Assembly: GCA_965222155.1 (NCBI GenBank)
Contig: CBDCTH010000012.1
Span: forward strand, 1,184,001 to 1,248,000
Direction: 5' to 3'
DNA: 64,000 nt
Source: Gammaproteobacteria bacterium
GTDB lineage: Bacteria > Pseudomonadota > Gammaproteobacteria > Eutrophobiales > Eutrophobiaceae
Shown: piece by piece, positions 40,878-62,309 of the stretch
Numbering within the stretch: position 1 is the first letter of the stretch
How the letters are laid out: every line of letters begins with the position of its first letter
The notes under the pieces: model-generated
The model's input: the letters and a program-made list of their open reading frames with translations, nothing else
Database searches by the model: none
Told to the model about the DNA's origin: nothing
Translations under genes and position numbers: made by a program

Positions 40878-40920
40878 TGACTCTATAAAATATCCGCAGG
40901 TTACGTAATTAAAACATATT

Positions 40921-41074
40921 ATCCGCAGATTACGCAGATTAGCGCAGATTAAAAATGATTCTTTTGTGTTGGAGTGATTTTGTTCTGAAATTGATTATAA
41001 GAACAACCATTGCAGCCCCGATAATATGATAAGTCTGCTCATCTTTTATATTTTCATCTGCGTAATCTGCGGAT
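40921..41074 (-). mobile_element. 154-bp internally deleted derivative of the GxxExxY element (family D)
   Basis: TIR ATCCGCAGATTACGCAGAT at both ends; interior encodes the gene start (DEQTYHIIGAAM) fused to the gene end (LIINFRTKSLQHKRIIFNLR*). Confidence 0.8.
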
Positions 41075-41095
41075 AAATAATTTTTCACCCGTGTA

Positions 41096-42859
41096 TTAGT
41101 CCCGTTTGAAGACTTCGTCAAAGCGGACGATTTCATCCCGTCTCGGCAAGGGTTCACCCGTTTCCCGCGCATAGTCAAGATCCGCTGCTGAATCCTCGTC
41201 ATACCACCAGAAGGAATAAGCGCCGTCCTCGTCGGAATATTTAGGCAGCACGGTTTTCGGGATACCGAATTTGTTCCAGTACAACAGGCGCCGATAATTG
41301 AGGTTCCACAACAGGATGTACGGGATATCATTGGTCAGGATGGCGTCAATCTCCCTCACCAGAGCGTGCCGTTTGTTGATATCGAATTCCGTTCTCAGCG
41401 CATCAATCATGGCATCTACTTCAGAATTATTATAGCCGGTGATATTCTGCCCGCCGGCACGATCCGCCTCCCTGGAATGCCACAGGGATTCCGGGTCCTT
41501 ATACAGGGACGCTCCCCAGGCTGCCCAGGTCATGTCAAAGTTGAACTCGTCCATATCCTTCACCCAGGCTGCCCAGTCCTTCCTGATGATCTCCAGGCGT
41601 ATTCCGACATCATTCAAACTTTCCCGGTAGATGGCCAGAAATTTATCCGAGTTCTGGCTGCGGGTCAGGAACTGGATGGTAAACGGTTGCTCGTCCTTCT
41701 CCAGCAGGCCGGTGTTTTCATTCGCCTGCCAGCCCGCCTCTGTTAGCAGACTCCTCGCCAATTCTTTGTCAAAGCGTATTTTTGGCCCCTGACAAGGTGT
41801 TTGCGCGTTATATAAGTCCTCGAAATAACATTGATGCAGGAAGTAAGACTCATGCATGATCGTCTGGTTCATCCTGGTACGATCCAACAGGTAGGCGAGG
41901 GCGAGCCGTACCCGCCGGTCGGCAAACTTGGCCCGCCGCAGGTTCATGGCGAACCCCTGGAAACCGATGGGATTATAGTTATACACCTCCTGCTTGATAA
42001 TCCAGTTGTTATCGTATGCCTCGCCGCTGGTTTCCGTCGCCCAGCGCGAGGCCGTATACACCGGATAAAAATCCAGGTTGCCAGTCTTGAATTCGGCAAA
42101 CGCATTTTCCCGTTCAGTGAAGAAGCGGAACTTGAGCCGGTCAAAATTGGCAGTCCCGCGCACGCTTTCCCGGTCTCTTTGCCACCAGTCCGCCCGGCGT
42201 TTGAGGGTAAGGGCAATCCCTTCTCTCAACGATTCCGGCTTGTAAGGGCCGCCCACGACCGGAAATTCAAAATTGATTTTATTAAAATCCCGGTCCTTGA
42301 AGATATGCGCAGGGAGTATATGGAACGAGCCCAGGGACAGCAGGTTTTTCCAGTGAACTTCCCTGGCCTGGAAGCGTATTGTCTGCTCATCAAGCACTTC
42401 CGGAGGATGAAACCGCTCAAAGGCAATCTTGTGGGGTCCAGTCAGGTTTTTCGGGTCCATGATCGCATTAAATGTCCAGGCAACGTCACGGGCGCTGACG
42501 GGCGTGCCGTCGCTCCATTCAGCCTGTTCATCCAGCCTGAACTCAAAGGTGGCCCGGTCCGTGGAAACAGACCAGGCCGCGGCCAGGTTCGGCTCGAATT
42601 CCAGTGTTAATCCATTGTTGCTGAGCAGGGATTCAAACATCAGCCCGAACAGGCGGCTGGACGTTATGGTCGTATCGAGATAGTAATTTAAACTTTTAGG
42701 GAAAGGCCCCGACCAGAACGACAACTCGCCACCCGGATGGGCGGCAGGGCTGGCAAACGGCGACATTTCTTCCTGCCAGTCAGGGTGCGGAAATTGCTGG
42801 GCAACCGCCGCGGGGAGCAGGCAAACCCATAAGTTCAGCAACAGGAACAGTTTGTACAT
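41096..42859 (-). CDS. yejA: Peptide ABC substrate-binding protein (YejA-like)
   Basis: Signal peptide; WSDGTPVSARDVAWTF, GPYK, QGFAMNLRR..FADRRVRLAL; ATG 42859 chosen. Confidence 0.85.
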   Translation of the reverse strand: MYKLFLLLNLWVCLLPAAVAQQFPHPDWQEEMSPFASPAAHPGGELSFWSGPFPKSLNYYLDTTITSSRLFGLMFESLLSNNGLTLEFEPNLAAAWSVSTDRATFEFRLDEQAEWSDGTPVSARDVAWTFNAIMDPKNLTGPHKIAFERFHPPEVLDEQTIRFQAREVHWKNLLSLGSFHILPAHIFKDRDFNKINFEFPVVGGPYKPESLREGIALTLKRRADWWQRDRESVRGTANFDRLKFRFFTERENAFAEFKTGNLDFYPVYTASRWATETSGEAYDNNWIIKQEVYNYNPIGFQGFAMNLRRAKFADRRVRLALAYLLDRTRMNQTIMHESYFLHQCYFEDLYNAQTPCQGPKIRFDKELARSLLTEAGWQANENTGLLEKDEQPFTIQFLTRSQNSDKFLAIYRESLNDVGIRLEIIRKDWAAWVKDMDEFNFDMTWAAWGASLYKDPESLWHSREADRAGGQNITGYNNSEVDAMIDALRTEFDINKRHALVREIDAILTNDIPYILLWNLNYRRLLYWNKFGIPKTVLPKYSDEDGAYSFWWYDEDSAADLDYARETGEPLPRRDEIVRFDEVFKRD

Positions 42860-42966
42860 ATCACGAGATTCATTCAAATAATAGTCAGGTAATCGAGCTT
42901 TCGGCAAAGTGAAGTGTATTATAGTACCTTGATAAACGACCACCTATTGATGATTTTTCAGAAAAG

Positions 42967-44589
42967 ATGACAGGGAACATACTGCTGGAGGTAAAAGCTC
43001 TAAAAGTTTGGTTTGCCGCTGAAAACCGCCCGGTCAAGGCCGTTGACGGGGTGGATTTCCGGATTCAACAGGGGGAAACTTTCGCACTGCTGGGGGAGTC
43101 GGGCAGCGGCAAATCCGTGACTGCACTGAGTATCACCAGGTTGTTGCCGCGGACGGTCGAAATCAGCGGCGCCATAGTGTTCAACGGCATGGACCTCCTG
43201 GCCCTGCCAAAGAAGAGGATGCGCAGCTTCAGGGGCAGGCATATCGCCATGATATTCCAGGAACCGCAAACCTCGCTCAATCCGGCCCTGACGGTGGGAA
43301 AGCAGGTGGGAGAGACACTTGCGCAGCACAGGAATCTTTTCGGGAGAGTACAAAAGAAAAGAGTAATTGAATTACTGGAAGCGGTGGAAATTCCAGATCC
43401 GGCGCAACGCATGGATGAATATCCCTACCAGTTCTCCGGAGGCATGAAACAACGGGTCATGCTGGCGCTGGCGCTGGCAGGGGAGCCTGATTTACTCATT
43501 GCCGATGAACCCACTACCGCGCTGGACGTCACGACCCAGGCCCGGATACTTGCGCTACTGAAAAAAATACAACGTGATACCGGCATGGCCATGTTGTTTA
43601 TCACCCATGACCTGGCTGTGGCCTCCCAGGTGGCGGACCGGGTTGCCGTCATGAACAAGGGCAAGCTGGTTGAAACTGCCTCCAACCGACGATTTTTCAG
43701 CCGGCCACAACACCCGTATTCAAAAATATTGTTTGATTCCCTGCCGGATGCCTCGAAAAACCGGGTCCGGGAGGCCGGGGAGATGCCGTTGCAGGCTGAA
43801 CCCATGCTCAGGGTGTCTGAATTGAAAGTCCATTTCCCTGTGCAGACGGGTTTTTTCGGTCGCCCGGCAGGCTACCTGCGGGCCGTGGATGGCGTGTCCC
43901 TGGAGTTAGCACAGGGTCGAACCCTGGCCGTAGTAGGTGAATCAGGTTCCGGGAAAACGACCTTGGGTAAAGGTATCCTGCAACTGCTCAAACCTGCCGG
44001 GGGTGCAGTGTTTCTTACGGGTGACAACTTGTCCGACCTGTCAGCGTCACAATTGCGTCAACGCCGTACCGATATGCAGGTGGTATTCCAGGATCCTTTC
44101 TCGTCCATGAACCCGCAGATGATGGTCAAGGATATTATCGAAGAGGGTATGCTGTCTCTGGGAGCAGAAAAAAACAGCAGGGTCAGGCAGGCGCTTGTTG
44201 ATGAACTACTTGACCAGGTCGGCCTGGAACCGGATTTTAAATATCGTTATCCGCATGAGTTTTCCGGCGGACAGAGACAGCGCATCTGTATTGCCCGGGC
44301 GCTGGCCGTCAGGCCGAAACTGCTGATTTGTGATGAACCGACAAGCGCCCTGGATGTAACGGTACAGGCCCGGATACTGGGGTTGCTGGCAAGCTTGCAG
44401 GAGGAACTGGGGCTGGCATACCTGTTTATTACCCACAATATCAGCGTGGTCGCCAGTTTTGCCCATGACGTGGCGGTAATGTACCAGGGCAGGATAGTGG
44501 AGCAGGGCGCAACAGGATCGGTTTTAAGCGCTCCACGGCATGAATATACAAAAACCCTTTTATCAGCCGTACCAGTTATCCGCAGATGA
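42967..44589 (+). CDS. Second fused dual ATP-binding subunit of a peptide ABC transporter
   Basis: Two GESGSGK and two FSGG signatures; stop codon supplied by the GxxExxY element end. Confidence 0.88.
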
Positions 44590-45000
44590 CGCAGATTAAC
44601 GCAGATTAAAGACAAGTCTTTTATACTGAAGCTGTTTTGCGCCGAAATTGATCAATAAACCCCGGTTTAACCCTGAGGCTTTCAGATAGTTAATCAGTTG
44701 AGATTCATCATGGCCGGATAATTTTTGCAGTGCTTTTGTCTCAACAATAACCGAATCATAACAGATAAAATCTGGTAGATAATACGTTTTCAGCTTCTGT
44801 TTTTTGTAATAGACAGGAAGTTTTTTCTCTTTTGAATAGGGAATGCCTTGTAGGTGAAATCCAGGCTAGGGCTTCCTGGTAAATTACTTCGAGAAAACCG
44901 TGACCAAGTTCGTTATGTACAGTCATTGCTGCTCCGATAATAGTATACGTATCTTCATCTCTTCTATTTTTATCTGCGTTCACCTGCGTCATCTGCGGAT
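44578..45000 (-). mobile_element. 423-bp inverted-repeat-bounded element carrying a GxxExxY nuclease gene (family D, full length)
   Basis: ATCCGCAGATGACGCAG at 44578 and its reverse complement ending at 45000; shorter copies at 40921 and 62201. Confidence 0.65.
44596..44992 (-). pseudogene. GxxExxY protein (PD-(D/E)xK nuclease-like), frameshifted near 44860
   Basis: VHNELGHGFLEVIYQEALA, then in another frame FHLQGIPYSKE...PDFICYDSVIVETKA...QLINYLKASGLNRGLLINFG...KRLVFNLR*. Confidence 0.9.
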
Positions 45001-45023
45001 ACTTATCATTATTTTTCGGCGGC

Positions 45024-46127
45024 TCAGGTTTTAGTCATCAGGTGAATGCTATCAGCCAGCAGTGAGACGGTGATAGCGCCGCCTTGTTCGAGGTGGTTGC
45101 GCCGGGCGACGTGGGTTGGCACTGACAAGTAGAGCGCCTGGCCGTTATCAACCGCAATCGTGATTGAGCTTGTCTCTCCCAGGGGGATAAATTCATCGAT
45201 TCGTCCTTTTACGGGGTTCTCTCGTTCACCTTGGGACGGCCTGTCGCGCCGGTGCAGGATAATGCTTTCAGAAGGGATGACCCAGTCTACTTCAGATTGA
45301 GGGTCAAACTCCGGGCGATAGCGGGTCGTCAGGGTGTGGCCATTCCAGTTAATACGGGTTTTTCTACTATCGTGATCATGTCCCTCAATCTGGCCGCTGA
45401 ATATATTATCGTGGCCGACCAGGCCGGCGACGCCGGCATTATCGGGGTGGTTCATGACTTCCTCGGGAGTATTGATTTGCAGGGTTTTGCCGTGGTGGAT
45501 GACGCAAATCCTGTCGGCAATCCGGCGTGCTTCGTTCAGGTCGTGGGTGACGTGAATCACCGGCAAGTTGAAGCGTAGTCTCAAACCGACAAGTTCGCGT
45601 ACCAGTTTTCTGCGGGTCTGTTGATCTACGGAGGAAAAGGGCTCATCCAGCAATAAAACCCGAGGATCACGCGCCAATGCCCGGGCCACGGCAATACGCT
45701 GTTGTTGACCCCCTGATAACTGGTGGGGATAACGGTCTTCCAGACCGCTCATGTTCATGGCGTTCAGCAGGCTTCCAGCGATAAGCCGTTTCTGTTTATT
45801 CCCGATCCGGGTTAACGGTAGCATGATGTTCTGCAACGCCGTCATGTGCGGGAACAGGGCATAGTGCTGGAATACCATGCCGATACGTCGCTGTTGTACG
45901 GGTAGATTAATACCTGTCTCGGTATCCAGCCATTGTTCCCCATGGCAGGAGACCTGGCCGGTATCCGGGGTGTACAGACCGCTGATGGCTCTTAATATGG
46001 TCGTTTTACCGCTCCCGGAAGGCCCCAGGATCACCAGGATTTCACCTGAATCGCAGGTCAGGGACACATCCAGCGGAATCGGCTGAGCCTGTTTCAGTCG
46101 GACGCGAATGCGGTTAGCGTCGGTCAT
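45024..46127 (-). CDS. modC: Molybdate ABC transporter ATP-binding protein
   Basis: GPSGSGKT, LSGGQQQR, LLLDEPF; downstream of modB. Confidence 0.88.
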   Translation of the reverse strand: MTDANRIRVRLKQAQPIPLDVSLTCDSGEILVILGPSGSGKTTILRAISGLYTPDTGQVSCHGEQWLDTETGINLPVQQRRIGMVFQHYALFPHMTALQNIMLPLTRIGNKQKRLIAGSLLNAMNMSGLEDRYPHQLSGGQQQRIAVARALARDPRVLLLDEPFSSVDQQTRRKLVRELVGLRLRFNLPVIHVTHDLNEARRIADRICVIHHGKTLQINTPEEVMNHPDNAGVAGLVGHDNIFSGQIEGHDHDSRKTRINWNGHTLTTRYRPEFDPQSEVDWVIPSESIILHRRDRPSQGERENPVKGRIDEFIPLGETSSITIAVDNGQALYLSVPTHVARRNHLEQGGAITVSLLADSIHLMTKT

Positions 46128-46785
46128 TTTTCCCCAGTCGGTCAGTCAGAAAGTAGATGAGGGTGATGGAGACAAGGGAAATCATGAGTAATACCGCGGA
46201 CATGGTTGCTGCGCCGGTATTGTCGAAGGCCTGGACGCGGTCATAAATGGCGATAGCGATAGTACGCGTCTCACCGGCAAGGTTTCCGCCCACCATCAAT
46301 ACCACTCCGAACTCCCCCAGGGTATGGGCCATGGTCAAAATGGCTGCGGAGACGATCCCGGGCCAGGCCAGGGGTATCTCAATTTTCCAGAAAGTCTGCC
46401 AGGAGGAAAGACCACTGCACCAGGCCGCCTCGCGAACGTTCAGAGGAATGGCTTCAAAGCTGCGCTGTACAGGCTGCACGGCGAAGGGGATATTAAATAT
46501 GATCGATGCCACCAGGATTCCCTCAAACGAGAAAACCAGGGAATTACCCGCTATTTCTTCATAAAATTTACCGAAGATCGAACGCTCACCCAGGCTTACC
46601 ATCAAATAAAACCCCAGGACTGTCGGCGGCAGGATCAGGGGCAGGGCGACCAATGCCTGAATAAGATTCCTCCCCCGGTTGTGCGACCAGGCCAGTTTGC
46701 GCGCGGATATAATTCCGATGGGCGCCAGTATGAGAGCGGTCAGCGCGGCAAGGAGTAATGAAACTTTAAGGGCCTGCCAGTCCAT
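46114..46785 (-). CDS. modB: Molybdate ABC transporter permease
   Basis: LPLILPPTVLGFYL, AHTLGEFGVVLMVGGN. Confidence 0.92.
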   Translation of the reverse strand: MDWQALKVSLLLAALTALILAPIGIISARKLAWSHNRGRNLIQALVALPLILPPTVLGFYLMVSLGERSIFGKFYEEIAGNSLVFSFEGILVASIIFNIPFAVQPVQRSFEAIPLNVREAAWCSGLSSWQTFWKIEIPLAWPGIVSAAILTMAHTLGEFGVVLMVGGNLAGETRTIAIAIYDRVQAFDNTGAATMSAVLLMISLVSITLIYFLTDRLGKNDRR

Positions 46786-46794
46786 ATTGAGTAG

Positions 46795-47550
46795 TCAGTC
46801 GGATAAAGAGTATCCGTATTTTTTAAAAATGGCTCCACTGGAACCGGTTGAAAGATAATTGTAAAACAGAGCACCGTCTTGATTGTCTTTATCGAGTAAT
46901 ACAGCGTATTGGATGATGGGTGTGTGCCAGCTTTCCGGGATGGGGAAGTTTATGCCTCTGCCGGAAAATTGCTTTAGCACTGGGAATGAACTGGGGATGA
47001 TACACAAGTCCACACTACCTGACACGCAAAATTGCATTGCCTGTGCGGCATTCTCTCCCAGCAGCAGTTTATTCCGGCTGACTACCCATACCCCGGCATT
47101 TTTTAATCCTTCCCTGGCCGCCGACCCGTAGGGTGCGTGTTCCGGGTTGGCAATTGCCATTCTTCGAAAATCGCCGTATTGCAGGACTTTTAATACATCA
47201 CTCATTGTCCCGGGCGTTGCTATTTTCGAGGTCTCAGGAACATACAGGCTGAGTCGGCCGCGTACCAGTGTCTTGACACTGTCTATCTCCCGGCCGTTAT
47301 CCCTGATAAAGTCCACGTACTCTTTGCCCGCGGAGATAAAAACCTGGTAGGGCGCGCCCTGTACGATTTGCCGGGCAAAATTACCGGACGAACCAAACGT
47401 CAGATTGACCCTGCTCCCTTCATCCGACTGAAAGGCCTGGCTTACCTCTGTGATAGGATGGGTCAGGTTGGAAGCGACAGCAATGTTCACTGCCTCCGCA
47501 TGCGCTTCCTGGATACAGAGTAACGACAACAGGTAGAATAATTTCCGCAT
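46795..47550 (-). CDS. modA: Molybdate ABC transporter substrate-binding protein
   Basis: AVASNL, GSSGNFARQIVQGAPY, AIANPEHAPYG. Confidence 0.92.
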   Translation of the reverse strand: MRKLFYLLSLLCIQEAHAEAVNIAVASNLTHPITEVSQAFQSDEGSRVNLTFGSSGNFARQIVQGAPYQVFISAGKEYVDFIRDNGREIDSVKTLVRGRLSLYVPETSKIATPGTMSDVLKVLQYGDFRRMAIANPEHAPYGSAAREGLKNAGVWVVSRNKLLLGENAAQAMQFCVSGSVDLCIIPSSFPVLKQFSGRGINFPIPESWHTPIIQYAVLLDKDNQDGALFYNYLSTGSSGAIFKKYGYSLSD

Positions 47551-47571
47551 ACGATAAACTATATCAGGGTA

Positions 47572-47820
47572 TAATCTCCAGGTAAAAAACAGGCCGAATA
47601 ATTAACCGTTCGTCATTGTATAATCTTCAGGTAGAAAACAGGCCGAACAATTAACCGTTCGTCATTCCGGCGAATGCCGGAATCCAGTCACGAAACTATT
47701 CATTATAAGGAAGGTTGGCTTACTGGATTTCCATCCTTTGGTTCGTCAACGGCACATCCCCCTGCTTACAGCATGCAGGGGCAGGCTATGTGCCACTACT
47801 CGGCATTCGCCGGAATGACG
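47572..47820. repeat. 46-bp direct repeat pair followed by an inverted family A doublet with a nested hairpin insertion
   Basis: 47572-47617 and 47621-47666; GTCATTCCGGCGAATGCCGGAATCCAG facing CTGGATTT[insert with CCCCTGC...GCAGGGG]CGGCATTCGCCGGAATGACG. Confidence 0.75.
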
Positions 47821-47860
47821 GGTACGCTTCGAACACGCATACTAAAAGAGGGCTGATGTC

Positions 47861-48721
47861 ATGATTTTATTCACGGGATTGACCGGCGCGGTCGGGACGG
47901 AAATAGTAAAGCTGTTGCCGGAGTTTGGTGTTCAGGCCAGAGGGCTGGTCCGGGACCCGGCCAAGGCGGATCTGATAAAGGTAGCCGGTGTTGAGGTCAT
48001 CCCCGGTGACCTGGGTGATCCGGTCGCCATCAAAGAGGCGCTACAAGGGTGTGACAAGGCTTTCCTGCTCATGGCTAACTCCAGGGAGCAACTGGATCTG
48101 GAAAAAGGTTTCGTCGATGCAGCCTGGGCAGGCGGAGTCCGACGCCTGGTGAAAATGTCGGCCAACGGGGCTAATTCCAATTCAACGTCATTATTGAAGC
48201 GTTATCACGGCGATTCAGAGCAACACATCCGGGAATCAGGCCTGAGCTATACGCTGGTCCGGCCTAATTACTTCATGCAAAACATGTTTCACGTGGCTGC
48301 CAGTATTGTCGAACAGGACAAGTATTTCATGCCCATGCGGGCCGGGCAGGTGGGGATTATCGACGTGCGCGACGTGGCGCGATTTATACTGACCGTCCTG
48401 ACGATCCCCGGACACGAAAACAAGACCTATGAAATCACCGGCCCTGAGCTGGTATCGTTCCATGACATCGCCGGCCAACTGTCCGAGGTGATAGGCCGGG
48501 AGATCCGCTACGTTGACGTCCCCGCGGAAGATTTCAAGGAATCATTATCGCAATGGTTCCCTGATGACTGGTACGTGGAGACCGTCTCAGACATGTTCAA
48601 ACTGACAGCGCAAGGCCGCGGGGCATTGCTTAATGATATTTACAGCCAGGTGACGGGCAGGGCGCCGACGACTCTGAAGCAATTCTTCCAGGATTACGCC
48701 TCGTTTTTTGAGAAGGGTTAA
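47861..48721 (+). CDS. NmrA-like / atypical SDR NAD(P)-binding oxidoreductase
   Basis: ILFTGLTGAVG, VRPNYFMQN, IDVRDVA, YEITGPE. Confidence 0.85.
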   Translation: MILFTGLTGAVGTEIVKLLPEFGVQARGLVRDPAKADLIKVAGVEVIPGDLGDPVAIKEALQGCDKAFLLMANSREQLDLEKGFVDAAWAGGVRRLVKMSANGANSNSTSLLKRYHGDSEQHIRESGLSYTLVRPNYFMQNMFHVAASIVEQDKYFMPMRAGQVGIIDVRDVARFILTVLTIPGHENKTYEITGPELVSFHDIAGQLSEVIGREIRYVDVPAEDFKESLSQWFPDDWYVETVSDMFKLTAQGRGALLNDIYSQVTGRAPTTLKQFFQDYASFFEKG

Positions 48722-48735
48722 TATTCGTGATATTT

Positions 48736-48776
48736 GGGGTCAGTGTAAAAACTTTGTGAATGTTTACACTGACCCC
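48736..48776. repeat. Short family C hairpin between convergent genes, possibly terminator-like
   Basis: GGGGTCAGTGTAAA...TTTACACTGACCCC. Confidence 0.7.
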
Positions 48777-48870
48777 AAACATGGTACAGCCTTACAATTA
48801 TCGGCATCAAGCACGAACATTGCACTCATAAACACTTGTCTTTCATCTGCGTAATCTGTGGACGAATTTC

Positions 48871-50223
48871 TCAGTCGGCCGGTTCGCGCATGGTGACGAA
48901 TTCTTCGGCTGCCGTTGGATGGATGCCGATGGTGGCATCGAATACGGCCTTGGTTGCGCCAGCCTTGAGGGCGATGCCTATGCCCTGGATGATTTCGCCG
49001 GCGTCTGCGCCGACCATGTGTACGCCCAGGACCTTGTCGGTGTCCTTGTCGACGATGATCTTCATCAGCGTCTTTTCGCCGTTGCCTGTCAAGGTGTGCT
49101 TCAGGTTGGTAAAACGGGATTTGTATATCTCTACGTTTGCATACTCCTGGCGGGCCTGTTCCTCGGTGAGGCCTACCGTGCCCAGGTTGGGTTGGCTGAA
49201 GATGCAGGTGGGGATGTCGCGGTAATCGACGCGCCTTGACTGGTTGTTGTAGAGGTTGTGGGCCAGGGCCGTTCCTTCCGCAGTGGCGACGGGCGTCAGG
49301 TTCATACGGTCGGTCACGTCGCCTATGGCGTAAATGGAAGGGATTGAGCTGCGGTATTCGGCATCGACCACTATTGCGCCCTTATCATTGAGCTTCACTC
49401 CGGCATTGTCCAGCCCCAGCCCGTTTGTGTTCGGTCGCCGTCCGGTGGCGTACATAATTAAGTCTGTTGACAGATCCGCAGTATCAGGGGAGTTGACCAG
49501 GTAACGATTGCCCTGTTTGTCTATGCTGTTAATCCGGGTATTGAACAGCAGTTTTATCCCTTTTTGGCGCATTTGTCCGGCAAGAAACTCCCGCATTTCC
49601 TTATCGAAGCCGCGCAGGAACAGGCCGCCGCGATACACCAGGGTGGTGTCCACACCAAGACCGTGAAATATACCGGCAAATTCGACTGCGATATAGCCGC
49701 CCCCCACGATCACCACACTGGCCGGCAGGGACTCGAGGAAAAAGGCTTCGTTGGATGAGATGATGTATTGCTTGCCGGGAATGTCCGGGATATGCGGCCA
49801 GCCACCCGTTGCCACCAGTATCCGCTGCGCGCTGATACTCTTCCCGTTGATCCGAACTGTATTCGGCCCGCCAAGCTCGGCCCTTCCGTTAAACAAGCGC
49901 ACCCCATTACCTTCCAGTAAATTCTTATAAATACCATTTAATCTACTGATTTCGTTATTTTTATTATTTAAAAGCTCATCCCATTTAAAAACAGGTTCGG
50001 CGACTTGCCAGCCGTAACCCGCCGCATCATGAAAATCTTCGGCAAAATGCGAGGCGTAAACAAACAGCTTTTTCGGGATACAGCCGACGTTGACGCAGGT
50101 GCCGCCCAGGTAGCGGTCCTCGGCGATGGCGACTCGTGCGCCGAACCCGCCGGCCATGCGCGCCGCGCGCACGCCGCCGGAACCGGCGCCGATGACAAAC
50201 AGGTCATAATCAAATTCGTTCAT
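48871..50223 (-). CDS. gor: Glutathione-disulfide reductase
   Basis: [43 protein letters not shown]. Confidence 0.95.
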
Positions 50224-50293
50224 ATTCACAGGTAACGCGCCCCTGATGAAAACAGACAAGGGCATAGGTTAACGCAGCTAAAACCACGGGAAA

Positions 50294-50377
50294 GCCACAG
50301 AGTACACAGAGTATACAAAGGAAAACTGAACTGTTAGCCCTTTCGGTTCACTCCGTGATCTCTGTGTCCTCTGTGGC
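50294..50377. repeat. Inverted-repeat element GCCACAGAGTACACAGAG...CTCTGTGTCCTCTGTGGC
   Basis: 17/18-nt inverted match; internal 9-nt periodicity like family D ends. Confidence 0.65.
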
Positions 50378-50392
50378 AATAAAAAATCCGTG

Positions 50393-51079: not shown

Positions 51080-51301
51080 CTTCTGGTGGCCTGGGAAGAT
51101 AACGGAATGGCGGAACTGGAATTTATCGCTGTCGCAGACACGGGCAACATTGAGGACCGGATGGCACTGCTGGGCAGGCAGGCTTCCGAAGACGTGGTCG
51201 AACATGAGATTTCACTCCGGTTACTCCGTCACTTCGCTTCATCGGTGCGCCACCAGCAGTACAGTGATGCGGATACCGTTACTGTCCGGGTCAACGTTTA
51301 G
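51078..51301 (+). pseudogene. Probable orphan 3' fragment of a larger transporter-associated gene
   Basis: LEFIAV..NIEDRMALL...EISLRLLRHFASSVRHQQYSDADTVTVRV* resembles, from recall only, a C-terminal domain of some permeases; no intact 5' part. Confidence 0.35.
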
Positions 51302-52557: not shown

Positions 52558-52682
52558 AGATATTGCCTCAGTTTGAAGTTGATGGATATTGTCTACTTAA
52601 TTAATGGCAGGACAAAAGTGAGAATTCTTCGAGTGTATCATCTCAGTCATGCACGCGTAAGCGGGAATTCAATGATACAGCA

Positions 52683-52828
52683 GTTCCCGCTAACTCCCGG
52701 GATCGAGGGCATCCTGCCCTCGTGGAGGGCGAGACGCCCTCCTTCCCAGGGAAAAATGCCCCCTTATCTCCTGGGGGACAGATTTAAATCTGTCCCCTGT
52801 GCCTTGTTGACTTCGATTTAGCAGGAGC
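52683..52828. repeat. MITE-like element family B, copy 3
   Basis: Same ends and palindromes as 2309-2472. Confidence 0.85.
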
Positions 52829-52860
52829 ACCTGTCAATGATAAATGTCTGTTATGATCCG

Positions 52861-53676: not shown

Positions 53677-53729
53677 ATAATATCCGGCTGCGGATGAGGC
53701 ATCTAAATCTACCATAAATAGAGGGCATC

Positions 53730-55088: not shown

Positions 55089-55098
55089 GCTTAGTTAC

Positions 55099-55123
55099 CA
55101 TTCCGGCGAAGGCCGGAATCCAG
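55099..55123. repeat. Family A REP-like palindrome
   Basis: CATTCCGGCGAAGGCCGGAATCCAG between convergent ffh and dsbB. Confidence 0.8.
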
Positions 55124-55146
55124 ATGTACAATCATCCGTCATCAGA

Positions 55147-55644
55147 CTATCTGACATGCTCAGGTTTTAACAGGAGATACAACAACAGGACTGAAAACGC
55201 GCCAAACCAGAACAGGCTCCACTCTGCGATACTCAGGGACAGGAAAGTCCATACTGTTTCGGCACACTCCCCGGAGCCTGTAAAAATCAGTTTAAGCGCA
55301 TCGAAAATCGGAAATGCCTGCAGGATGAAATCCAGTCCCGGCCCGCATTCAGGCACCCGTTCCGGCGGCAGGTGTTGCAACCATACCTGCCTGCCTGCAA
55401 TGGCGGCGCCTGCCAGCGCGCAAATCAGCGCCAGTGCATTGTAAATACGGGTTGCCGAACCATGAATAAAACACGCGAGGCAGACGAGACCGACTCCCAG
55501 GTAAGCAACCCGTTGCAAAATACACAGCGGGCAGGGGTCCAGATCCTGGACGAATTGCAGGTAGTAGCCGAACCCAAGCAGCGACAGGCAAGCCAGGGCA
55601 ATAAATAAATGAATGAGGCGTCCGGAATGTAACGGTGAGTTCAT
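55147..55644 (-). CDS. dsbB: Disulfide bond formation protein B
   Basis: PCPLCILQR, RQVWLQ, CGP, GSGECA. Confidence 0.93.
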   Translation of the reverse strand: MNSPLHSGRLIHLFIALACLSLLGFGYYLQFVQDLDPCPLCILQRVAYLGVGLVCLACFIHGSATRIYNALALICALAGAAIAGRQVWLQHLPPERVPECGPGLDFILQAFPIFDALKLIFTGSGECAETVWTFLSLSIAEWSLFWFGAFSVLLLYLLLKPEHVR

Positions 55645-55650
55645 AATTTA

Positions 55651-55750
55651 GGGAACCTCTATTTATTCACAAATTGATATATTAGCGGTCAATGATTTCA
55701 ATAAGTTAGCGACCCTGTGTATCGAAAAATGTCTATTATTAGAGGTTCCC
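55651..55750. mobile_element. 100-bp MITE with GGGAACCTCTA terminal inverted repeats (IS5-like ends)
   Basis: GGGAACCTCTA...TAGAGGTTCCC in a TTA/TTTA context, 6 nt upstream of dsbB ATG. Confidence 0.65.
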
Positions 55751-55777
55751 TTTAATCGTTCTTCGTGTCTCAGTCGC

Positions 55778-55802
55778 CATTCCGGCGCAGGCCGGAATCC
55801 AG
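55778..55802. repeat. Family A REP-like palindrome abutting the yheT stop
   Basis: CATTCCGGCGCAGGCCGGAATCCAG. Confidence 0.8.
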
Positions 55803-56774
55803 TCAAAAACATCCGCCTAAAAATTCAACTATCCGCTGTTCCAACCAATACACAGGATACCCCGGCGCCTTGCCGCTGACAAATCCGATGTGCCCGCCGG
55901 TCTGCGCAAGCTCCAGTTGCACATATTCGGACAACTCATCTTCAGCAGGGATGACGTCCTCGGTCATGAGGGGGTCGTCCCGGGCATGGACTAACAAGAC
56001 AGGTACGTTGATGCTGCGTAAATACTGACGCGAGCTGCTGCGCATGTAGTAGTCCTCCACCCCGGCAAAGCCATGCAGCGGAGCCGTTATCTTATCGTCG
56101 AAGCTGAAAAAATCATTCAGCTTAGGAACTTCGCCGATGTCCAGGGGGCAGTCCCTAGCGCTGAATTTATCGATGATTTTACGTTTCAACAAGCGGAGCA
56201 GCCGGCGCTGGTATAGCCTGGAAAACCCTTTATTGAGCCGTCCTGCCCCTTCGGCCAGGGCGTAGGGCACGGAAACAGCGGCCGCTGCATGGACCTGTCC
56301 CTTGCGGTCTGCTTCTCCCAGGTACTTCAACAGCGCATTGCCGCCCAGCGAATAGCCCACAGCCGCTATGGGAACGCCGGGAAACCGCTCATGCAAATGG
56401 TCGATCAGGAACTCGATATCACCGGTCTCTCCGGAATGGTAACTGCGCGCCAAACGGTTATGTTCCCCGCTGCAACCGCGAAAATGCATGAATACCCCGA
56501 GCCAACCCTGTTTTTCAATGCCCGCTAGGAGCGGCTTGACGTAATGGGAGTCTACGCATCCTTCAAGTCCGTGAAATACCGCGACGATCTGGCTTCCTGC
56601 ATTCGCTGTCAGACACAGGTCAACGAAGTCCCCGTCGGGTAACTCAAGCCGCTCACGGGTCAAGTCCACCTCCGCCCTGCGCCGAAAATAATACGGCCAC
56701 AGGGTCTGTAAATTAGCGCCCGGCAACCACCATGCAGGCTCAAACCCGCTCGTTACGATCTTTCCGTGTTTCAT
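55803..56774 (-). CDS. yheT: YheT-family alpha/beta hydrolase
   Basis: RERLELPDGDFVDL, FHGLEG, GYSLGG nucleophile, ARDDP, GGHIGF. Confidence 0.88.
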   Translation of the reverse strand: MKHGKIVTSGFEPAWWLPGANLQTLWPYYFRRRAEVDLTRERLELPDGDFVDLCLTANAGSQIVAVFHGLEGCVDSHYVKPLLAGIEKQGWLGVFMHFRGCSGEHNRLARSYHSGETGDIEFLIDHLHERFPGVPIAAVGYSLGGNALLKYLGEADRKGQVHAAAAVSVPYALAEGAGRLNKGFSRLYQRRLLRLLKRKIIDKFSARDCPLDIGEVPKLNDFFSFDDKITAPLHGFAGVEDYYMRSSSRQYLRSINVPVLLVHARDDPLMTEDVIPAEDELSEYVQLELAQTGGHIGFVSGKAPGYPVYWLEQRIVEFLGGCF

Positions 56775-57073
56775 AAGCAGTCATTATATGATGCTAAATT
56801 GAGAGTTGTGCTTGAAAAAAACCGATGTCGAATTTTTTGTCAGGCTCAGGGGAGCCAGCGGAGCTAGGGTCGGACCTCTGTAATTTCAATCGGGCCTTTT
56901 GGTTTAAGCATAGATATTATTTGTCACCGGGCCTCTTATTTTATTTGACGTATATATCGATATTCGATGCAAACCCATAAAAAAATCGCACCCCTTAAAA
57001 AGGCCGGATAGTAGAAGCCATGGGTCGGACCTCTTATGCTGCCCCTTAAGTATTATTTCCCCGGAATTACCCT

Positions 57074-57101
57074 TTGCGTTATACGGGATTTTGTATAAAA
57101 T
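57074..57101 (+). promoter_or_regulatory. Sigma70 promoter TTGCGT-N16-TAAAAT with overlapping TTATAC-N8-GTATAA operator; probably leaderless transcript
   Basis: Motifs read directly; ATG lies 6 nt after the -10 box and there is no RBS. Confidence 0.55.
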
Positions 57102-57107
57102 AACCGA

Positions 57108-57431
57108 ATGAAACTATTGAAGTTCGCAGGAAGCGCGCTTGCTGATATTCGGGATTTCCCGTTGGAAGCCAGGCGGGAAGCAGGTTACCAGCTCAGCCAA
57201 GTACAGTTCGGGTTTGAACCGTCTGATTGGAAACCGATGAGCAGTATAAGTCCCGGCGTTCGTGAAATACGTATTCATAAGAAAGGAGAATTTCGTGTGA
57301 TATATATCAGTAGGTTTGATGAAGCCATATATGTATTACAGGCGTTTCAGGAGAAAACCAGGAAAATATCGAAAAAAGACAGGGAATTGATCAAGGCTCG
57401 TTTAAAAATGATTTCGGAGGTACGCTTATGA
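57108..57431 (+). CDS. higB: RelE/HigB-like toxin (Gp49/DUF891 type)
   Basis: EAGYQLSQVQ.G.EPSDWKPM...GVREIRI...FRVIY...YVLQAFQEKT. Confidence 0.85.
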   Translation: MKLLKFAGSALADIRDFPLEARREAGYQLSQVQFGFEPSDWKPMSSISPGVREIRIHKKGEFRVIYISRFDEAIYVLQAFQEKTRKISKKDRELIKARLKMISEVRL

Positions 57432-57727
57432 GCAAGAAAGACAGACAAATTATTGACTCCTCAGGCAATGTCTTTGCTGATTTAGGCTTTGAACGATACG
57501 AAGCCGAAAACCTGCTGGTGCGCTCCAGGCTAATGGCGGCGATAAAAGCCTATATCGAGTCTGAAGGCATCACTCAAAGCGAGGCGGCTGAACGCTTCGG
57601 CGTTGCCCAACCCCGCATCAGTGAAATTTACCAGGGTAAAATCGAATTATTTTCTGCGGACAAGCTGATAAATATGTTGGCCCGGGTAGGGCGGCATGTA
57701 GAAATTTCCGTCCATAAGGCCGCCTGA
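57428..57727 (+). CDS. higA: XRE HTH antitoxin (HigA-like)
   Basis: SSGNVFADLG, TQSEAAERFGVAQPRISEI, FSADKL. Confidence 0.88.
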   Translation: MSKKDRQIIDSSGNVFADLGFERYEAENLLVRSRLMAAIKAYIESEGITQSEAAERFGVAQPRISEIYQGKIELFSADKLINMLARVGRHVEISVHKAA

Positions 57728-58096
57728 TCTCATCAGGCATTTCCAAAGCAATGGTGTATCCTAGCGAATTCCGAAACATTAATGGAACAAACGTGACCTC
57801 TACTCGATAAATGGAAAAATTCAACCGACTGAAAGAAATCCTGCGGACGATGTTCCAGCTCGACCGGGGCGACCTGGACTTCGGCCTGTACCGGATCATG
57901 AATCTAAAGGCAGGGGAAATAGAGGAATTTCTCGAAAAAGATTTATTGCCACAGGTGCAGACCGCTTTGGCAGGAAACGTTGCCGACAGGCAGGCCGGAT
58001 TAGAAAAAGAACTGGCTGAGAAAAAGGGCGTCAAGCGCGTGGCCGTGCAGGACTTTGGCGACAACAACCTGGTCCTGGTGGATGAAGGGCACCTAG

Positions 58097-59864
58097 CCCG
58101 CATATCTCACAAACTTTACCAAACAGCGACAAACAGGCTGTCTGTCGTTGATTCACTCACTGCATAGGGTCGATAGAGCAGGCAAACAAGCAAATCGGTG
58201 ACGCGTACGGCCTGTTTATCACGACCCTCCGGTGACAGACCGGCGTTTGCCCTGCCCAGGCGGGTGTGATGCGGTCAGCCGGCCAAGGGAGACCGTTCAC
58301 GGCGGGGCCGCCGCGCGGGTCAGGGGATGAGTGAGGTCCCGCGGGTTAACCGGGTGGGTCGGGCACGGGGCCGTCTCGCAGTTGTTGGCGCACGGTGGCG
58401 AACCTGGCCTGGTGCGGATAGCCGGAGGCGAAGGCCAGCCAGACCCGGCGGGCGCTGATGCGCACCACGGCGGCCAGTTTGAGGATACGGGTGCGGAGCG
58501 TGCCGCATTGCGCCTTGGCCCAACGGGTGCCGGCCAGTCCCAGGCGGCGCAGGCCGTGCAGCAGCAGGCAGGCAAAGGCAGACAGCTACAGGCGCAACTG
58601 GTTGGCGCGCAGGGTGGCCGTGCTGGTACGGTCGGCAAACAGGCCCGGTTGCTGCGCCTTGATGCGATTTTCCAGCTCCCCGCGCATGCAGTATAACTGC
58701 TCGTACAACACCTGGGCGCCGGCGGTTTTGTTATCCAGGTTGGTGACCACAAAACGCGGGTTGGCGCCGTTGGCCAGATGCGCTGCTTTTGCTAGCACCC
58801 GGCGCGTGCGCGACCAACTCTGCAAGGTACGATACCGTAATTCCCGGAAGCGCCGCGCGGCCCGGCCCGTCTGCAGGTAACGCCGGTGCGACTTGCGCAA
58901 GGCCTTGGCAATCTGCTTCTCCAACCGGCCATTGCGCGCCAACCCGAGCAGGTAATCCACATCATTGGCTTCGCACCAGGCCATCAGTTCCTCCCGGCAA
59001 AACCCCGAATCCCCGCGTACCCTGACCTGCACCTCGGGCCAACGCTGCCTTATCTGTCCGATAATCCGGGCCAACTCGTCCACACGGCCTGCCGCCGCAT
59101 CCTCATTGGCCGGGCGCAACCGGGCGCACAACAGGTGCTCCTCACAGAAGATGTACAACGGCAGATAACAATAGGACTTGTAGTAGCCGTGAAAGAAACG
59201 CCCCGCCTGCTCACCGTGCAGCGGGTCGTCCGTCGCAGCGAGGTCCAGCCACAACACCGACGGCGCACGCCGGTACGAGGCCGGAAAGGTCTCCACCAGC
59301 ACGCGGGCCAACCCCGCAGGGTCTGCCACTATCTTCTGGTAACGGTGCTGCGCCGCCTGCTCAGGCACCCCCAACTCCAGCCGGTTCAACGTGCTCGACC
59401 CCGCCAACGGATGCCCCCGGTCACGGGCCCGGCGACGGCTATCCCCCGTCAGGTCCGCCTTGCCCACCAGTAACGCCAGCAGACTGTCACTGCGCAAGGC
59501 ATCCTGGTCATTGAGGTCTTCATACCCCAAGGCCAGCCCATAGATGCGTTGCGCCAACAACGCCTGTACCGGGTGCTCCACCTTCCCCGCCTGACGATAA
59601 TCCGTAAAACACCCCGCCAGCCGGGGCAGCACATTCAAACGCTGCTCCAGCTCACGCAGCAGCAGCCCGCCGGCGTCCGAGGTGCGCCGGCCACCGTCAA
59701 ATCGCCCGGTGACATGGCGCCGACCAAAGGATTGAAATTCAAGTTGGGTTGAAGTACACTGTGTAGCCATGGGGTCTCCTCTCAAGTTTAATGTAAAATA
59801 TTGATAACTCTCACATTATACGCGAAGTTGAGACCCTTTTACAATGGTTTGTGAGATATGCGGG
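58097..59864 (-). mobile_element. IS1380-family insertion sequence, 1768 bp
   Basis: Perfect 18-bp TIR CCCGCATATCTCACAAAC; CTAG duplicated at 58093-58096 and 59865-59868. Confidence 0.95.
58346..59770 (-). pseudogene. IS1380 transposase with in-frame TAG at 58586-58588
   Basis: FDGG..TSDAG, GYEDLND, TDDPLHGEQ, VRGDSGFCRE, ENRIK, RANQLRL*LSAFA... continues in frame to TAA at 58346. Confidence 0.88.
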
Positions 59865-60226
59865 CTAGGCGCGTCCGGCAAGGTATGGCGCGAGCGGCGC
59901 AAGGAATTATCCAGTGGTGGTTTTACCTTTGAATATTCCGCTACCTTAAAAGATACAACTACACCACGTTATTCATGAAACTGAAAAACGGGTTCGCAAA
60001 ACTGACCCTGACCTGCGTCTGAGTGCCTATATACTGTCCGTAACAGCCGTCCAACAGATTGATGGAGGTGTTCGCCATCCAAACGAGTGGAAAGAGGATG
60101 GTGTTTATTTCCTGAACGATCCTGATTGTCTGAAACAAGTTATCACGCACGTATTAGAACGAGAAACTCTACCACACTAAGTTTACGTCCTGGTAGCCTG
60201 TCGGCCTGGGGTGACACGATAATCGA

Positions 60227-60252
60227 CTGGATGCCGGGTCAAGCCCGGCATG
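60227..60252. repeat. Family A REP-like palindrome (GGGTCAAGCCC variant)
   Basis: CTGGATGCCGGGTCAAGCCCGGCATG. Confidence 0.75.
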
Positions 60253-60278
60253 GCGCTCTGGATGGTGACGAGTGAAAT

Positions 60279-61025
60279 TCACGGCCTGAAATCGCAATGC
60301 ACCTGGAACGGGCAGTCAGGGGCGTCTTCAGCGACCACGCGTCCGGACTCAATATACGGTCGTTCCAGGACGATTAACAACTCCTGGCCTGTATCCGTAG
60401 CAGCCGAATTCACCACTGTGCCGATGTTTCTTTCTTCTCCATCCGGCATCAGCGCGGTACCGGGTTCCAGGAGGGTTTTGTTTTCCGTCGTTGCATGGCA
60501 CAGGCGTCGCTTGACTTTGCCGCGGTAGCGCAGGCGCGCGATGATCTCCTGGCCCGGGTAACAACCCTTGGTGAATGACACGGCGTCCAATTCGTCCAGA
60601 TTCAGTTCCTGGGGCAGGAAGCGTCCACTGGTTTCCGGGCGGAGCCAGGGAATGCCTTGTCTGATGGATGTTGTTTCCAAGGAGTCAGCGTCTATTCCGG
60701 ATGGATAAGTTGGTAATTCCGGAATTTTTTCTGTCTCTATCCCCGTATCAACGATATTTACGTCAGCGCGCAATACGTACATTTTCAGACGCTTGCTAAA
60801 TGCCTCTTTTAGTGCGCCCGGCAGCAGCAACCAGAAAGTCTCATCCGAGCGGGCCAGGATGAAGGTGGCGATCACCCTGCCTTTGGGGTCGCACCAGGCG
60901 CTGAGGCCGGCCTGGCCGGGAACGAGTCCGGTAACATCAGTTGTGAATTGTCCGTGGAGAAAGCCGGAGGCGTCAGCGCCGTCAATCTTGATTGGGGTGA
61001 GGAAGTTAATCGAGCCGGGGCTCAT
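60279..61025 (-). CDS. ygfZ: Folate-binding Fe-S repair protein YgfZ (short form)
   Basis: FLHGQFTTDV, DPKGRV, VSFTKGCYPGQEIIAR. Confidence 0.9.
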   Translation of the reverse strand: MSPGSINFLTPIKIDGADASGFLHGQFTTDVTGLVPGQAGLSAWCDPKGRVIATFILARSDETFWLLLPGALKEAFSKRLKMYVLRADVNIVDTGIETEKIPELPTYPSGIDADSLETTSIRQGIPWLRPETSGRFLPQELNLDELDAVSFTKGCYPGQEIIARLRYRGKVKRRLCHATTENKTLLEPGTALMPDGEERNIGTVVNSAATDTGQELLIVLERPYIESGRVVAEDAPDCPFQVHCDFRP

Positions 61026-61399
61026 TGGGTTGCTTCGTGCTCGTTAACATCCGTGTCTCTGGATACCGGACAATCCCCCGGCTTACCGTATGCCGGGGCA
61101 GGCCTGTCCGGTACGACGCTGCTTGCGTCTTTCCCGTATAAGGGATGTTGGTGAGGTATGGCGTTGATTTTTCCTATGAGGGGCAGATAATCGGGGTTGG
61201 CCGGCTGCGCCTGACCGGTGATCCAGGCATACAGATCGGGATCGGCCTCATCCAGCAGGGAGCCGAACAGGGATTGTTCCCTGGAATTCAAGTGGGGATA
61301 ATCCCGTTCCAGAAAACGCAGCAACAGCAAATCCATTTCCCGGGTGCCGCGCCGGCAGCGCCAGCGTAACCGTGCGGTGGAATTAATGGCTGTTCCCAT
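61022..61399 (-). CDS. sdhE: Succinate dehydrogenase assembly factor SdhE with repeat-derived C-terminal extension
   Basis: LRWRCRRGTREMDLLL, LLDEADPDLYAW. Confidence 0.92.
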   Translation of the reverse strand: MGTAINSTARLRWRCRRGTREMDLLLLRFLERDYPHLNSREQSLFGSLLDEADPDLYAWITGQAQPANPDYLPLIGKINAIPHQHPLYGKDASSVVPDRPAPAYGKPGDCPVSRDTDVNEHEATQ

Positions 61400-62181
61400 C
61401 AGAGTATTTTTGTTGCCAGTAATTTCTTGGTTTCAGCAATGGCCTTGGCGGGGTTCAAGCCTTTCGGGCAGGTATTGGTGCAATTCATGATCGTGTGGCA
61501 ACGATACAGGCTGAACGGGTCTTCCAGTTCACCCAGTCGCTCCTCGGTGTTCTCGTCCCGGCTGTCTATTATCCAGCGGTAGGCCTGCAATAAAATCGCC
61601 GGTCCCAGGTAGCGGTCGCTGTTCCACCAGTAACTCGGACAGGCCGTAGAGCAGCAGGCGCACAGGATGCATTCGTATAAACCATCGAGTTTTTCCCGGT
61701 CTTGCTTGGTTTGCAGGCGCTCACTCTGGTCCGGGGCAGGGGAGCGGGTCTGCATCCAGGGTTTGATGGAGGTGTACTGTGCATAGAACTGGCTCAGGTC
61801 AGGGACCAGGTCCTTGACAACCGGAGTATGGGGCAGAGGATATATATTGATGTCGTGTTTAATAGCGCTGATGGTTTTGGTGCATGCCAGCGTGTTGACG
61901 CCGTCGATGTTCATGGCGCAGGAACCGCAGATGCCCTCGCGGCAGGAGCGCCGAAAGGTCAGGGTCGAGTCGATTCCATTCTTGACATGGATAAGCGCAT
62001 CCAGGACCATCTGGCCGCATTTCTCCAGGTCGACCTCATAGGTGTCCATTCTGGGGTTATCGCTCGTATCCGGATCCCAGCGGTAGACCCGCAGGGTTTT
62101 TTTCCGCGTCACGTTGCCGTTCAGCAGAAATGTTTTTCCCTGCTTCACTTTCGAATTTTTCGGCAATGTAAATTGCGCCAC
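61399..62181 (-). CDS. sdhB: Succinate dehydrogenase iron-sulfur subunit
   Basis: [40 protein letters not shown]. Confidence 0.97.
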
Positions 62182-62200
62182 TGTTGTTCTCTTTGGTTAT

Positions 62201-62296
62201 ATCCACAGATTACGCAGATTTTCACAGATTAAAAAGACAGGTCTGTTGTATTTTTTCATCTGCGTGCATCTGCGTGCATCTGCGTAATCTGCGGAT
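62201..62296. mobile_element. 96-bp minimal derivative of the GxxExxY element (family D) between sdhA and sdhB
   Basis: ATCCACAGATTACGCAGATT...ATCTGCGTAATCTGCGGAT inverted ends with extra GCATCTGCGT units. Confidence 0.75.
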
Positions 62297-62309
62297 TTTC
62301 ATTTGCGGA

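Follow-up and report, generated by a model that had tools for sequence, protein, structure and literature searches.

A cassette of about 425 bp, framing a GxxExxY nuclease gene with inverted tandem-core arms, resembles selfish DNA of an undescribed kind

Our analysis concerns a 64,000-nucleotide (nt) stretch of a gammaproteobacterial genome (GenBank GCA_965222155.1, CBDCTH010000012.1, positions 1,184,001 to 1,248,000; hereafter, the window) and a set of short intergenic elements in it, among them a 423-bp unit that holds one gene of the GxxExxY family between inverted repeats, its arms (Table 1). The genome that holds the window (G000; 4.55 Mb, 12 contigs) belongs to a genus of 23 genomes, and other G numbers denote its 22 congeners. 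The 423-bp unit begins with ATCCGCAGATGACGCAGATTAACGCAGAT and closes with the inverted ATCTGCGTTCACCTGCGTCATCTGCGGAT; its bounds read ATCCGCAGAT-GA-CGCAGAT-TAA-CGCAGAT and the inverted copy of this. The arm thus defined is 29 nt long, contains three direct CGCAGAT cores at a spacing of 9–10 bp, and stands at the two ends as terminal inverted repeats; CGCAGAT is referred to below as arm type 1. The sole open reading frame (ORF) of the cassette encodes a 132-residue PF13366 protein, and in the window it runs on the minus strand, with its ATG within one arm and its TAA within the other. The window gene matches PF13366 in two frames (44861-44956 and 44617-44859; 81.1 + 33.8 bits) and is a pseudogene, because 2 bp are missing relative to the intact paralogue at G000 C9:24022-24446, to which the 423-bp unit is 79.5% identical over 425 bp. 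A YejF-like ORF extends 12 nt into the stop-side arm, which supplies its last four codons and its TGA (ORF end, 44589).

An earlier reading of this DNA from its letters alone (the sequence-only reading) had singled out the 423-bp unit, a 154-bp copy, a 96-bp copy, and a half end, and all of these are present where it placed them. The 154-bp copy reads ..TYHIIGAAMVVLIINFRTKSLQHKRIIFNLR followed by a stop, exactly the in-frame joining of first and last gene codons that had been described, and its interior aligns with both ends of the gene. The identities of the neighbors likewise agree with those given (yejA-yejB, a convergent pair, gor, and sdhA-sdhB): a peptide-binding protein and a YejB-like permease, a YejF-like ATPase convergent with another ATP-binding cassette (ABC) ATPase, glutathione reductase, and SdhA/SdhB. 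The assignment of the gene to the GxxExxY family stands, as it is a true PF13366 member, with the amendment that the 2-bp deletion breaks the window copy.

Table 1. Elements of the cassette family in the window (window coordinates)
Feature	Position	Strand	Remarks
Full-length type-1 cassette: arm, broken GxxExxY gene, inverted arm	44578..45000	-	423 bp
Stop-side arm, three CGCAGAT cores	44578..44606	+	includes the gene's TAA (44596-44598)
Start-side arm	44972..45000	-	includes the gene's ATG (44991-44993); degenerate middle core CACCTGCG
GxxExxY/PF13366 coding region, pseudogene	44596..44993	-	2-bp deletion near 44868
154-bp internal-deletion derivative	40921..41074	-	first gene codons fused in frame to last codons
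Degenerate extra arm atccgcaggttacgtaat	40892..40909	+	directly outside the 154-bp copy, same orientation
96-bp gene-less arm pair	62201..62296	none	3 + 4 cores; sdhA-sdhB spacer
Additional outer-unit-like 10-mer atttgcggat	62301..62310	-	directly outside the 96-bp copy
Solo arm (2 cores)	48845..48863	-	after gor; ~12 nt resembling the gene's 3' end before the arm
Gene-less pair, 85 bp, with arms of a second type (type 4, CACAGAG-type), GCCACAGAG..CTCTGTGGC	50294..50378		between gor and the next gene

The intact C9 copy matches TIGR04256 with 141.2 bits (cut-off 35; E 1.8e-41) and PF13366 (PDDEXK_3) with 131.7 bits (cut-off 22), and carries the GxxExxY motif as GHGFLEAIY. Across 24 sequences of the family, residues G32, E35, Y38, D75, E85, K87, and Q99 are invariant (24/24), and no cysteine is found among the invariant or near-invariant columns. 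The ratio of nonsynonymous to synonymous substitution rates (dN/dS) among three type-1 genes is 0.08 at a synonymous divergence (dS) of 0.76–1.15; judged from these codon substitutions, the gene is under strong purifying selection. An AlphaFold (AF2) model of the protein, with a predicted local distance difference test (pLDDT) score of 91.2, has as its best match among solved structures Cas4 SSO0001 (Foldseek E 6.9e-5, template-modeling (TM) score 0.60; VIA Z 7.8, root-mean-square deviation (RMSD) 3.5, 101 aligned), followed by the BpuSI nuclease domain, CinB, MGME1, lambda exonuclease, and Hjc, with a few unrelated entries lower down. By entry, the VIA Z values are 7.8 (4ic1), 7.7 (3s1s), 6.9 (3ijm), and 6.0 (1gef), and nucleases or PD-(D/E)xK folds make up, by name, most of the top matches; no Z reaches 8, so it is the PD-(D/E)xK superfamily, and not a sub-class within it, that these matches settle. 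A sequence-profile search of solved structures returned chance matches only (S100-A8 at E 0.34, and above). The PF13366 family is listed as "Unknown" in a published account (PMC3424549).

The type-1 arm is dispersed through the G000 genome. Specifically, the 17-mer ATCCGCAGATNACGCAG has 56 exact occurrences, and 79 when up to 2 mismatches are allowed; a reversed 19-mer of the arm, serving as a chance control, occurs in none of the 23 genus genomes. We counted 28 arm pairs (55–446 bp), in addition to solo arms, and 27 of these are distinct, because C8 is an assembly duplicate of part of C10 (99.4% identical to C10:85475-115275; the assembly is redundant there, and its contamination estimate is 7.28%). 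Counted strictly, the arrays number 61, of which 42 have three cores, 17 have two, and 2 have four. Every one of the 28 pairs sits in a spacer between protein-coding ORFs and none within an ORF; the spacers are codirectional in 21 cases, convergent in 5, and divergent in 2, the distance to both neighboring genes is mostly 3–60 bp, and a flanking ORF stops within the arm in 6/28. A host gene would tolerate an insertion at its extreme end, since the arms supply stop codons. The only type-1 genes of G000 are the intact C9 copy and the broken copy of the window. A second intact GxxExxY gene (C12:134266-134607) has other arms of like build, AACATGGAT-GA-ACAGGAT-ATA-CAGGAT. Hairpins are predicted both for DNA and for RNA, with pairing solely between the two arms, each of which is non-palindromic; in the whole-element RNA fold (-124.6 kcal/mol, z -5.2, 0/100 shuffles as good) the arms pair and the AUG is buried.

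Two further candidates were rejected: C9 as an allelic version of a chromosomal region, because the repeats alone match, and a fifth array family, ACAGAC, which is a CAGA microsatellite. Arrays of types 1 and 4 share a location at 4 of 38 type-1 loci, versus about 0.6 expected under an even spread over spacers, a count too low to carry weight. C9 also holds a 446-bp unit (C9:26241-26686) with type-1 outer units, in which the arms are interrupted by a CCCCTG..CAGGGG hairpin and a CATGGAT unit; its interior is non-coding, has long nested inverted repeats, and recurs in part in the 145-bp element that G016 has at the yejF site. An Rfam scan of the C9 region with this variant gave no match at E up to 1.

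Comparison of orthologous sites among congeners reveals presence and absence, inversion, and footprint-like remnants. Empty sites in relatives, which the sequence-only reading had named as a check of mobility, are found for all three sites of its arm pairs and for further loci. At the 154-bp site, the gap between the flanking genes is ≤18 bp in 15/22 congeners, and type-1 arms are present in 0/10 congeners inspected. The 423-bp site is empty in G013, has a single outer unit in G005, and has two-unit mini-palindromes in G003 and G007 (10–25 bp for the remnants in all three); it holds in-situ deletion derivatives in G002 (96 bp) and G010 (~220 bp), a 145-bp pair with a different interior in G016, and an intact gene in the opposite orientation in G004. 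At the sdhA-sdhB site (5 congeners), the element is absent in G013, G002, and G032, and the pairs present in G014 and G007 differ from it in their interiors. Of three more loci outside the window, one is empty in both G007 and G013, and a second is empty in G013. Also among these loci, G002 shares with G000 a 251-bp gene remnant and its deletion joint, and G014 holds the element of G000 inverted. The interiors of the inverted elements align only when flipped (86% in G014, 74% in G004), and their arms are 93–97% identical. The closest relative, G032 (flanks 91–95% identical), is without a type-1 element at 5 of 6 sites inspected and has only a decayed remnant at the sixth; in two spacers that hold CGCAGAT-type elements in G000, it has CACAGAG-type arms. 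The flanks of the solo arm after gor (window 48771-48879) lie 29.5 kb apart in G032, so an insertion or a rearrangement has taken place at that spacer. A core-like motif at empty sites was considered as an insertion target and dropped, being present at two sites and absent at four others.

A minority of the gene-less pairs retain parts of the gene. Five align to it beyond the arms, and 9–10 of 27 keep gene-derived sequence when short inner flanks are counted. No interior is shared between loci, save for one assembly duplicate and one pair of loci 2 kb apart, and the two full copies are 77–80% identical in their interiors and 94–100% identical in their arms. Directly outside the pairs, an extra 9-mer resembling the outer unit is found within 45 bp in the same orientation at 16 of 54 outer flanks, and in the opposite orientation at 1; in 500 shuffles the number averages 0.16 and never exceeds 2.

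The association of gene and arms extends beyond G000. The genus has four gene/arm types (CGCAGAT, CACAGAT, CATGGAT/CAGGAT, and CACAGAG), and core spacing is 9–10 bp in the three checked. CGCAGAT arms frame relatives of 54–68% protein identity in Planctomycetota, Spirochaetota, Bacteroidota, Verrucomicrobiota, Kiritimatiellota, and another gammaproteobacterial genus, and in those phyla, Pseudomonadota included, the inverted arms overlap the start and stop codons of the gene. Our reading of 20 relative loci found recognizable inverted ends at 17 and exact tandem cores at both ends in 10; more distant relatives have CACGGAT, CGCGAAT, ACGAATT, or other units, and a copy on a Bacteroides finegoldii plasmid, between radA and the gene of a flavin adenine dinucleotide (FAD)-dependent protein, has CACAGAG-type arms. 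Arm type and protein co-vary: on a tree of 24 proteins, nine arm labels need 8 changes, which is the minimum (shuffles: mean 10.8, 0/200 as low), a result that, since kin share labels, shows clustering and not independent co-evolution events. Gene and arms, proposed earlier as one unit, do recur together across phyla. The same protein tree mixes six phyla at 54–68% identity with nearly identical arms, which means, as far as tree and arms can tell, that the gene has spread horizontally across phyla. Eight plasmid records carry relatives, all predicted to be non-mobilizable and several larger than 400 kb; tblastn of a phage collection found no relative of the gene. The Treponema saccharophilum plasmid pTS1 has an annotated GxxExxY gene (331266-331655) just upstream of a Fic family gene, and the ends of this gene form a ~25-bp inverted repeat (ACACGGATTCG..TAACG) of a different arm design.

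These observations are best read as describing a self-contained selfish cassette of ~425 bp in which the putative nuclease recognizes its own arms, a reading that we give an even chance of being correct. It is preferred because gene and arms form a unit, the unit is spread across phyla, arm type matches protein clade, selection acts on the catalytic residues, and elements turn over at orthologous sites. Binding, cutting, and every step of movement are what we infer, as follows. The nuclease would bind its own cores, either as three sites per arm that face the same side of the helix (9–10 bp being about one helical turn) or in a single-strand hairpin of arm with arm; it would cut at or near the outer unit; and host repair or replication would finish excision, inversion, or copying. 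The cassette would insert in either orientation, and without duplicating its target, at short AT-rich spacers by the ends of genes or at old footprints; internal deletion would then reduce cassettes to solo arms and to arm pairs that lack the gene. More tentatively, and with somewhat less than even confidence, we propose that these cassettes are prokaryotic mobile elements of a new class and that what moves them is a PD-(D/E)xK nuclease, minimal and stand-alone, that reads a 7-bp core thrice per arm, with nuclease and arms co-evolving into distinct specificities, four of them in this one genus, that compete for the same gene-end spacers.

Several points weigh against a self-moving cassette. 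The first group concerns the enzyme: to our knowledge, a PD-(D/E)xK nuclease alone is unable to join strands, and enzymes of the Cas4/RecB type act mostly on DNA ends or single strands. Deletion and inversion of palindromes can, in addition, come about through the host alone. The gene-less copies add to this. The interiors of 17 of 27 gene-less pairs are unlike the gene and unlike one another, so no MITE (miniature inverted-repeat transposable element) subfamily or copy is seen to have multiplied; the earlier proposal of an autonomous element with MITEs is supported in that deletion derivatives exist, arising in place, and is not supported in that no such subfamily is seen to have expanded. 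Target duplications, which it had named as a check, were not seen either: a consistent direct repeat was sought in 27 pairs and none was seen, the flanks reading ATTT-element-AAAT. The distribution of arms relative to genes is a further difficulty. Near-perfect type-1 19-mers number 138 in G016 (PF13366 gene: fragment only), 97 in G004 (intact), 96 in G007 (other type only, type 3), 92 in G001 (none), 88 in G002 (fragment only), 87 in G033 (none), 70 in G014 (none), 67 in G000 (intact), 62 in G034 (none), and 61 in G018 (intact). Thus G001, G033, G016, and G007 hold 87–138 near-perfect arms without an intact type-1 gene, and the share of arms that are near-perfect is highest in these same four genomes (0.91–0.95), versus 0.72–0.73 in the gene-bearing G000, G004, and G018. 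The co-occurrence of arms and gene across genomes that the sequence-only reading had predicted is accordingly weak. The type-4 arms repeat the pattern: G000 has 88 CACAGAG arrays (29 pairs, 54–373 bp), and tblastn found no cognate CACAGAG-type gene or remnant in it. Across genomes, counts of CACAGAG arrays are highest in G032, where the gene is present (390), and reach 124 each in G000 and G002 without it; CACAGAT arms are rare in all genus genomes. Lastly, genes for S23p (PF05635), a four-helix bundle, are flanked in G000, G006, and G014 by short units repeated in tandem, the arrays on the two sides being inverted relative to each other (GTTTTTAG or AATTACG/AATTAGG), and in G000 (C4:517600-518070) these units are found beside the gene only. 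S23p genes share the packaging, which is therefore not tied to a nuclease, and by analogy the arms of the GxxExxY cassette may be handled by something other than the protein they enclose. Under the more tentative proposal above, S23p cassettes would be a sister design.

One alternative is a long-term partnership of the kind known for REPINs, hairpins formed by repetitive extragenic palindromic (REP) sequences, and RAYTs, the REP-associated tyrosine transposases: the elements would be old, mostly vertically inherited intergenic hairpins, tolerated or used by the host (for instance, as terminators or mRNA ends), with the nuclease as their low-copy keeper and transposition rare. We consider this unlikely without being negligible. 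Elements occupy the same spacers across species with flanks just 71–87% identical, arms stay better conserved than the interiors between them, genomes have 0–2 intact genes versus tens of arms, and both the operon-spacer location and the predicted DNA and RNA hairpins fit such a role. Vertical inheritance is hard to reconcile, however, with a gene tree that mixes phyla with nearly identical arms, with the nearest congener lacking type-1 elements at nearly all sites inspected, and with spacers whose arm type differs from species to species; a keeper is hard to reconcile with arm perfection that peaks in genomes without the gene. In a second alternative, to which we attach a similarly low probability, host processes acting at hairpins, or an enzyme not yet known, would move, copy, or reshape the arms, and small genes of several families, such as those for GxxExxY proteins and S23p, would merely ride along. 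Arms are many and intact in genomes without the gene, S23p genes are packaged likewise, and the 446-bp C9 and 145-bp G016 units carry other, mutually related interiors between type-1 arms. A passenger would not be expected, however, to have an arm core type that matches its clade exactly across 24 sequences, start and stop codons built into the arms in distant phyla, or strongly selected catalytic residues. Nor was a candidate for the outside enzyme found, as Y1 transposases do not fit: arm-rich G001, G011, and G031 have no Y1_Tnp genes, and the three PF01797 matches in G000 have no core within 900 bp. The sequence-only reading had allowed that a RAYT or IS200 transposase might carry the same ends; no Y1 transposase does. 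Both of these alternatives keep some weight because arms abound in gene-less genomes, interiors are unique, and S23p genes offer a parallel.

A role in RNA is far less probable, and we think it very doubtful. On this account the arm stem of ~30 bp in the operon transcript would be a site of the RNase III type, the cassette would be excised from mRNA as intervening sequences are from 23S rRNA, and the stem would gate translation of the gene. The whole-element fold, with its paired arms and buried AUG, the position of cassettes inside operons and co-oriented with the upstream gene, and the like packaging of S23p, the protein of rRNA intervening sequences (PF05635, "23S_rRNA_IVP"), are all in keeping with it. 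It leaves unexplained, however, the dispersal, the empty sites, and the flips, as well as a conserved DNA-nuclease fold with intact catalytic residues.

The selfish cassette resembles several known systems and coincides with none of them. In the REP/REPIN-RAYT system, a low-copy gene is flanked by an inverted short repeat that is also scattered gene-less in intergenic spacers (Bertels and Rainey, PMC3337134). As in that system, the cassette gene is flanked by a dispersed repeat in inverted orientation whose pairs can form single-strand hairpins. It differs in its enzyme, a PD-(D/E)xK protein (PF13366) and not an HUH Y1 transposase (PF01797); in its arm, three direct 9–10-bp units and not an imperfect palindrome; in its start and stop inside the arms and its long, unique interiors; and in a gene tree that mixes six phyla, where the RAYT gene is mostly vertical. 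Transposons with terminal inverted repeats (TIRs), together with MITEs, share with the cassette several subterminal sites per end, full-length and internally deleted copies, and presence or absence at orthologous sites; unlike TIR transposons, the cassette is without a DDE transposase and target-site duplication and is just 425 bp in its entirety, and, unlike in MITEs, no subfamily is seen to share an interior. The 23S rRNA intervening sequences with an S23p ORF are alike in placing a small ORF inside inverted repeats that pair into a long stem, but the cassettes lie in protein-gene spacers (28/28 pairs), enclose a nuclease, and have many gene-less copies. Free-standing homing endonuclease genes are likewise small, selfish, horizontally spread nuclease genes between conserved genes, and copying by break repair would give either orientation and no target duplication; we know of no homing genes with repeat arms or dispersed gene-less copies. 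Finally, Cas4/RecB nucleases share the fold and the motif residues E, D, ExK, and Q..Y. Cas4 binds an iron-sulfur (Fe-S) cluster through four conserved cysteines; the cassette protein, a stand-alone 132 residues, lacks conserved Fe-S cysteines and has no CRISPR or helicase partners.

A literature search that covered sources other than subscription journals and bioRxiv supplements found no paper describing the cassette and none on GxxExxY mobility; to all appearance, the cassette is a form of selfish DNA that has yet to be described. What this analysis adds is the turnover at the level of the genus, the match of gene and arm in four types, the additional outer units, and the contrary evidence that gene-less genomes provide. 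If the nuclease moves its own arms, this would be a class of transposable element without DDE, HUH, tyrosine/serine recombinase, or Cas1 chemistry, and at 425 bp it would be about the smallest size feasible for an autonomous element; it would also give a function to the widespread PF13366 family and account, in many phyla, for a common class of intergenic repeats and for spurious read-through ORFs. Nuclease and arm types that match each other within a single genus provide a natural series in which to study how DNA sequence is read by a very small nuclease. If the nuclease is a passenger, the arms would still be an undescribed REP-like repeat family of unusual build.

Some further repeats and matches were noted in passing. 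A 418-bp contig from run X4, of another organism, matches window 44581-44996 with 7 differences and 2 gaps, and X4 contigs over the flanking genes diverge by 3–10% from the window. The window has three other short intergenic repeats (~47660-47730, 52670-52800, and 55650-55750), with 80, 125, and 22 BLAST matches in the genome, which are also depth spikes in the mapped contigs. The four sequencing runs mapped onto the window consist of assembled contigs; their joints at the elements come from other genomic copies that map across and do not bear on excision or circles. A repeat of ~160 bp (G000 C12:1260523-1260682) has many copies in 5/5 congeners searched, one of them nested within a type-1 element of G002.

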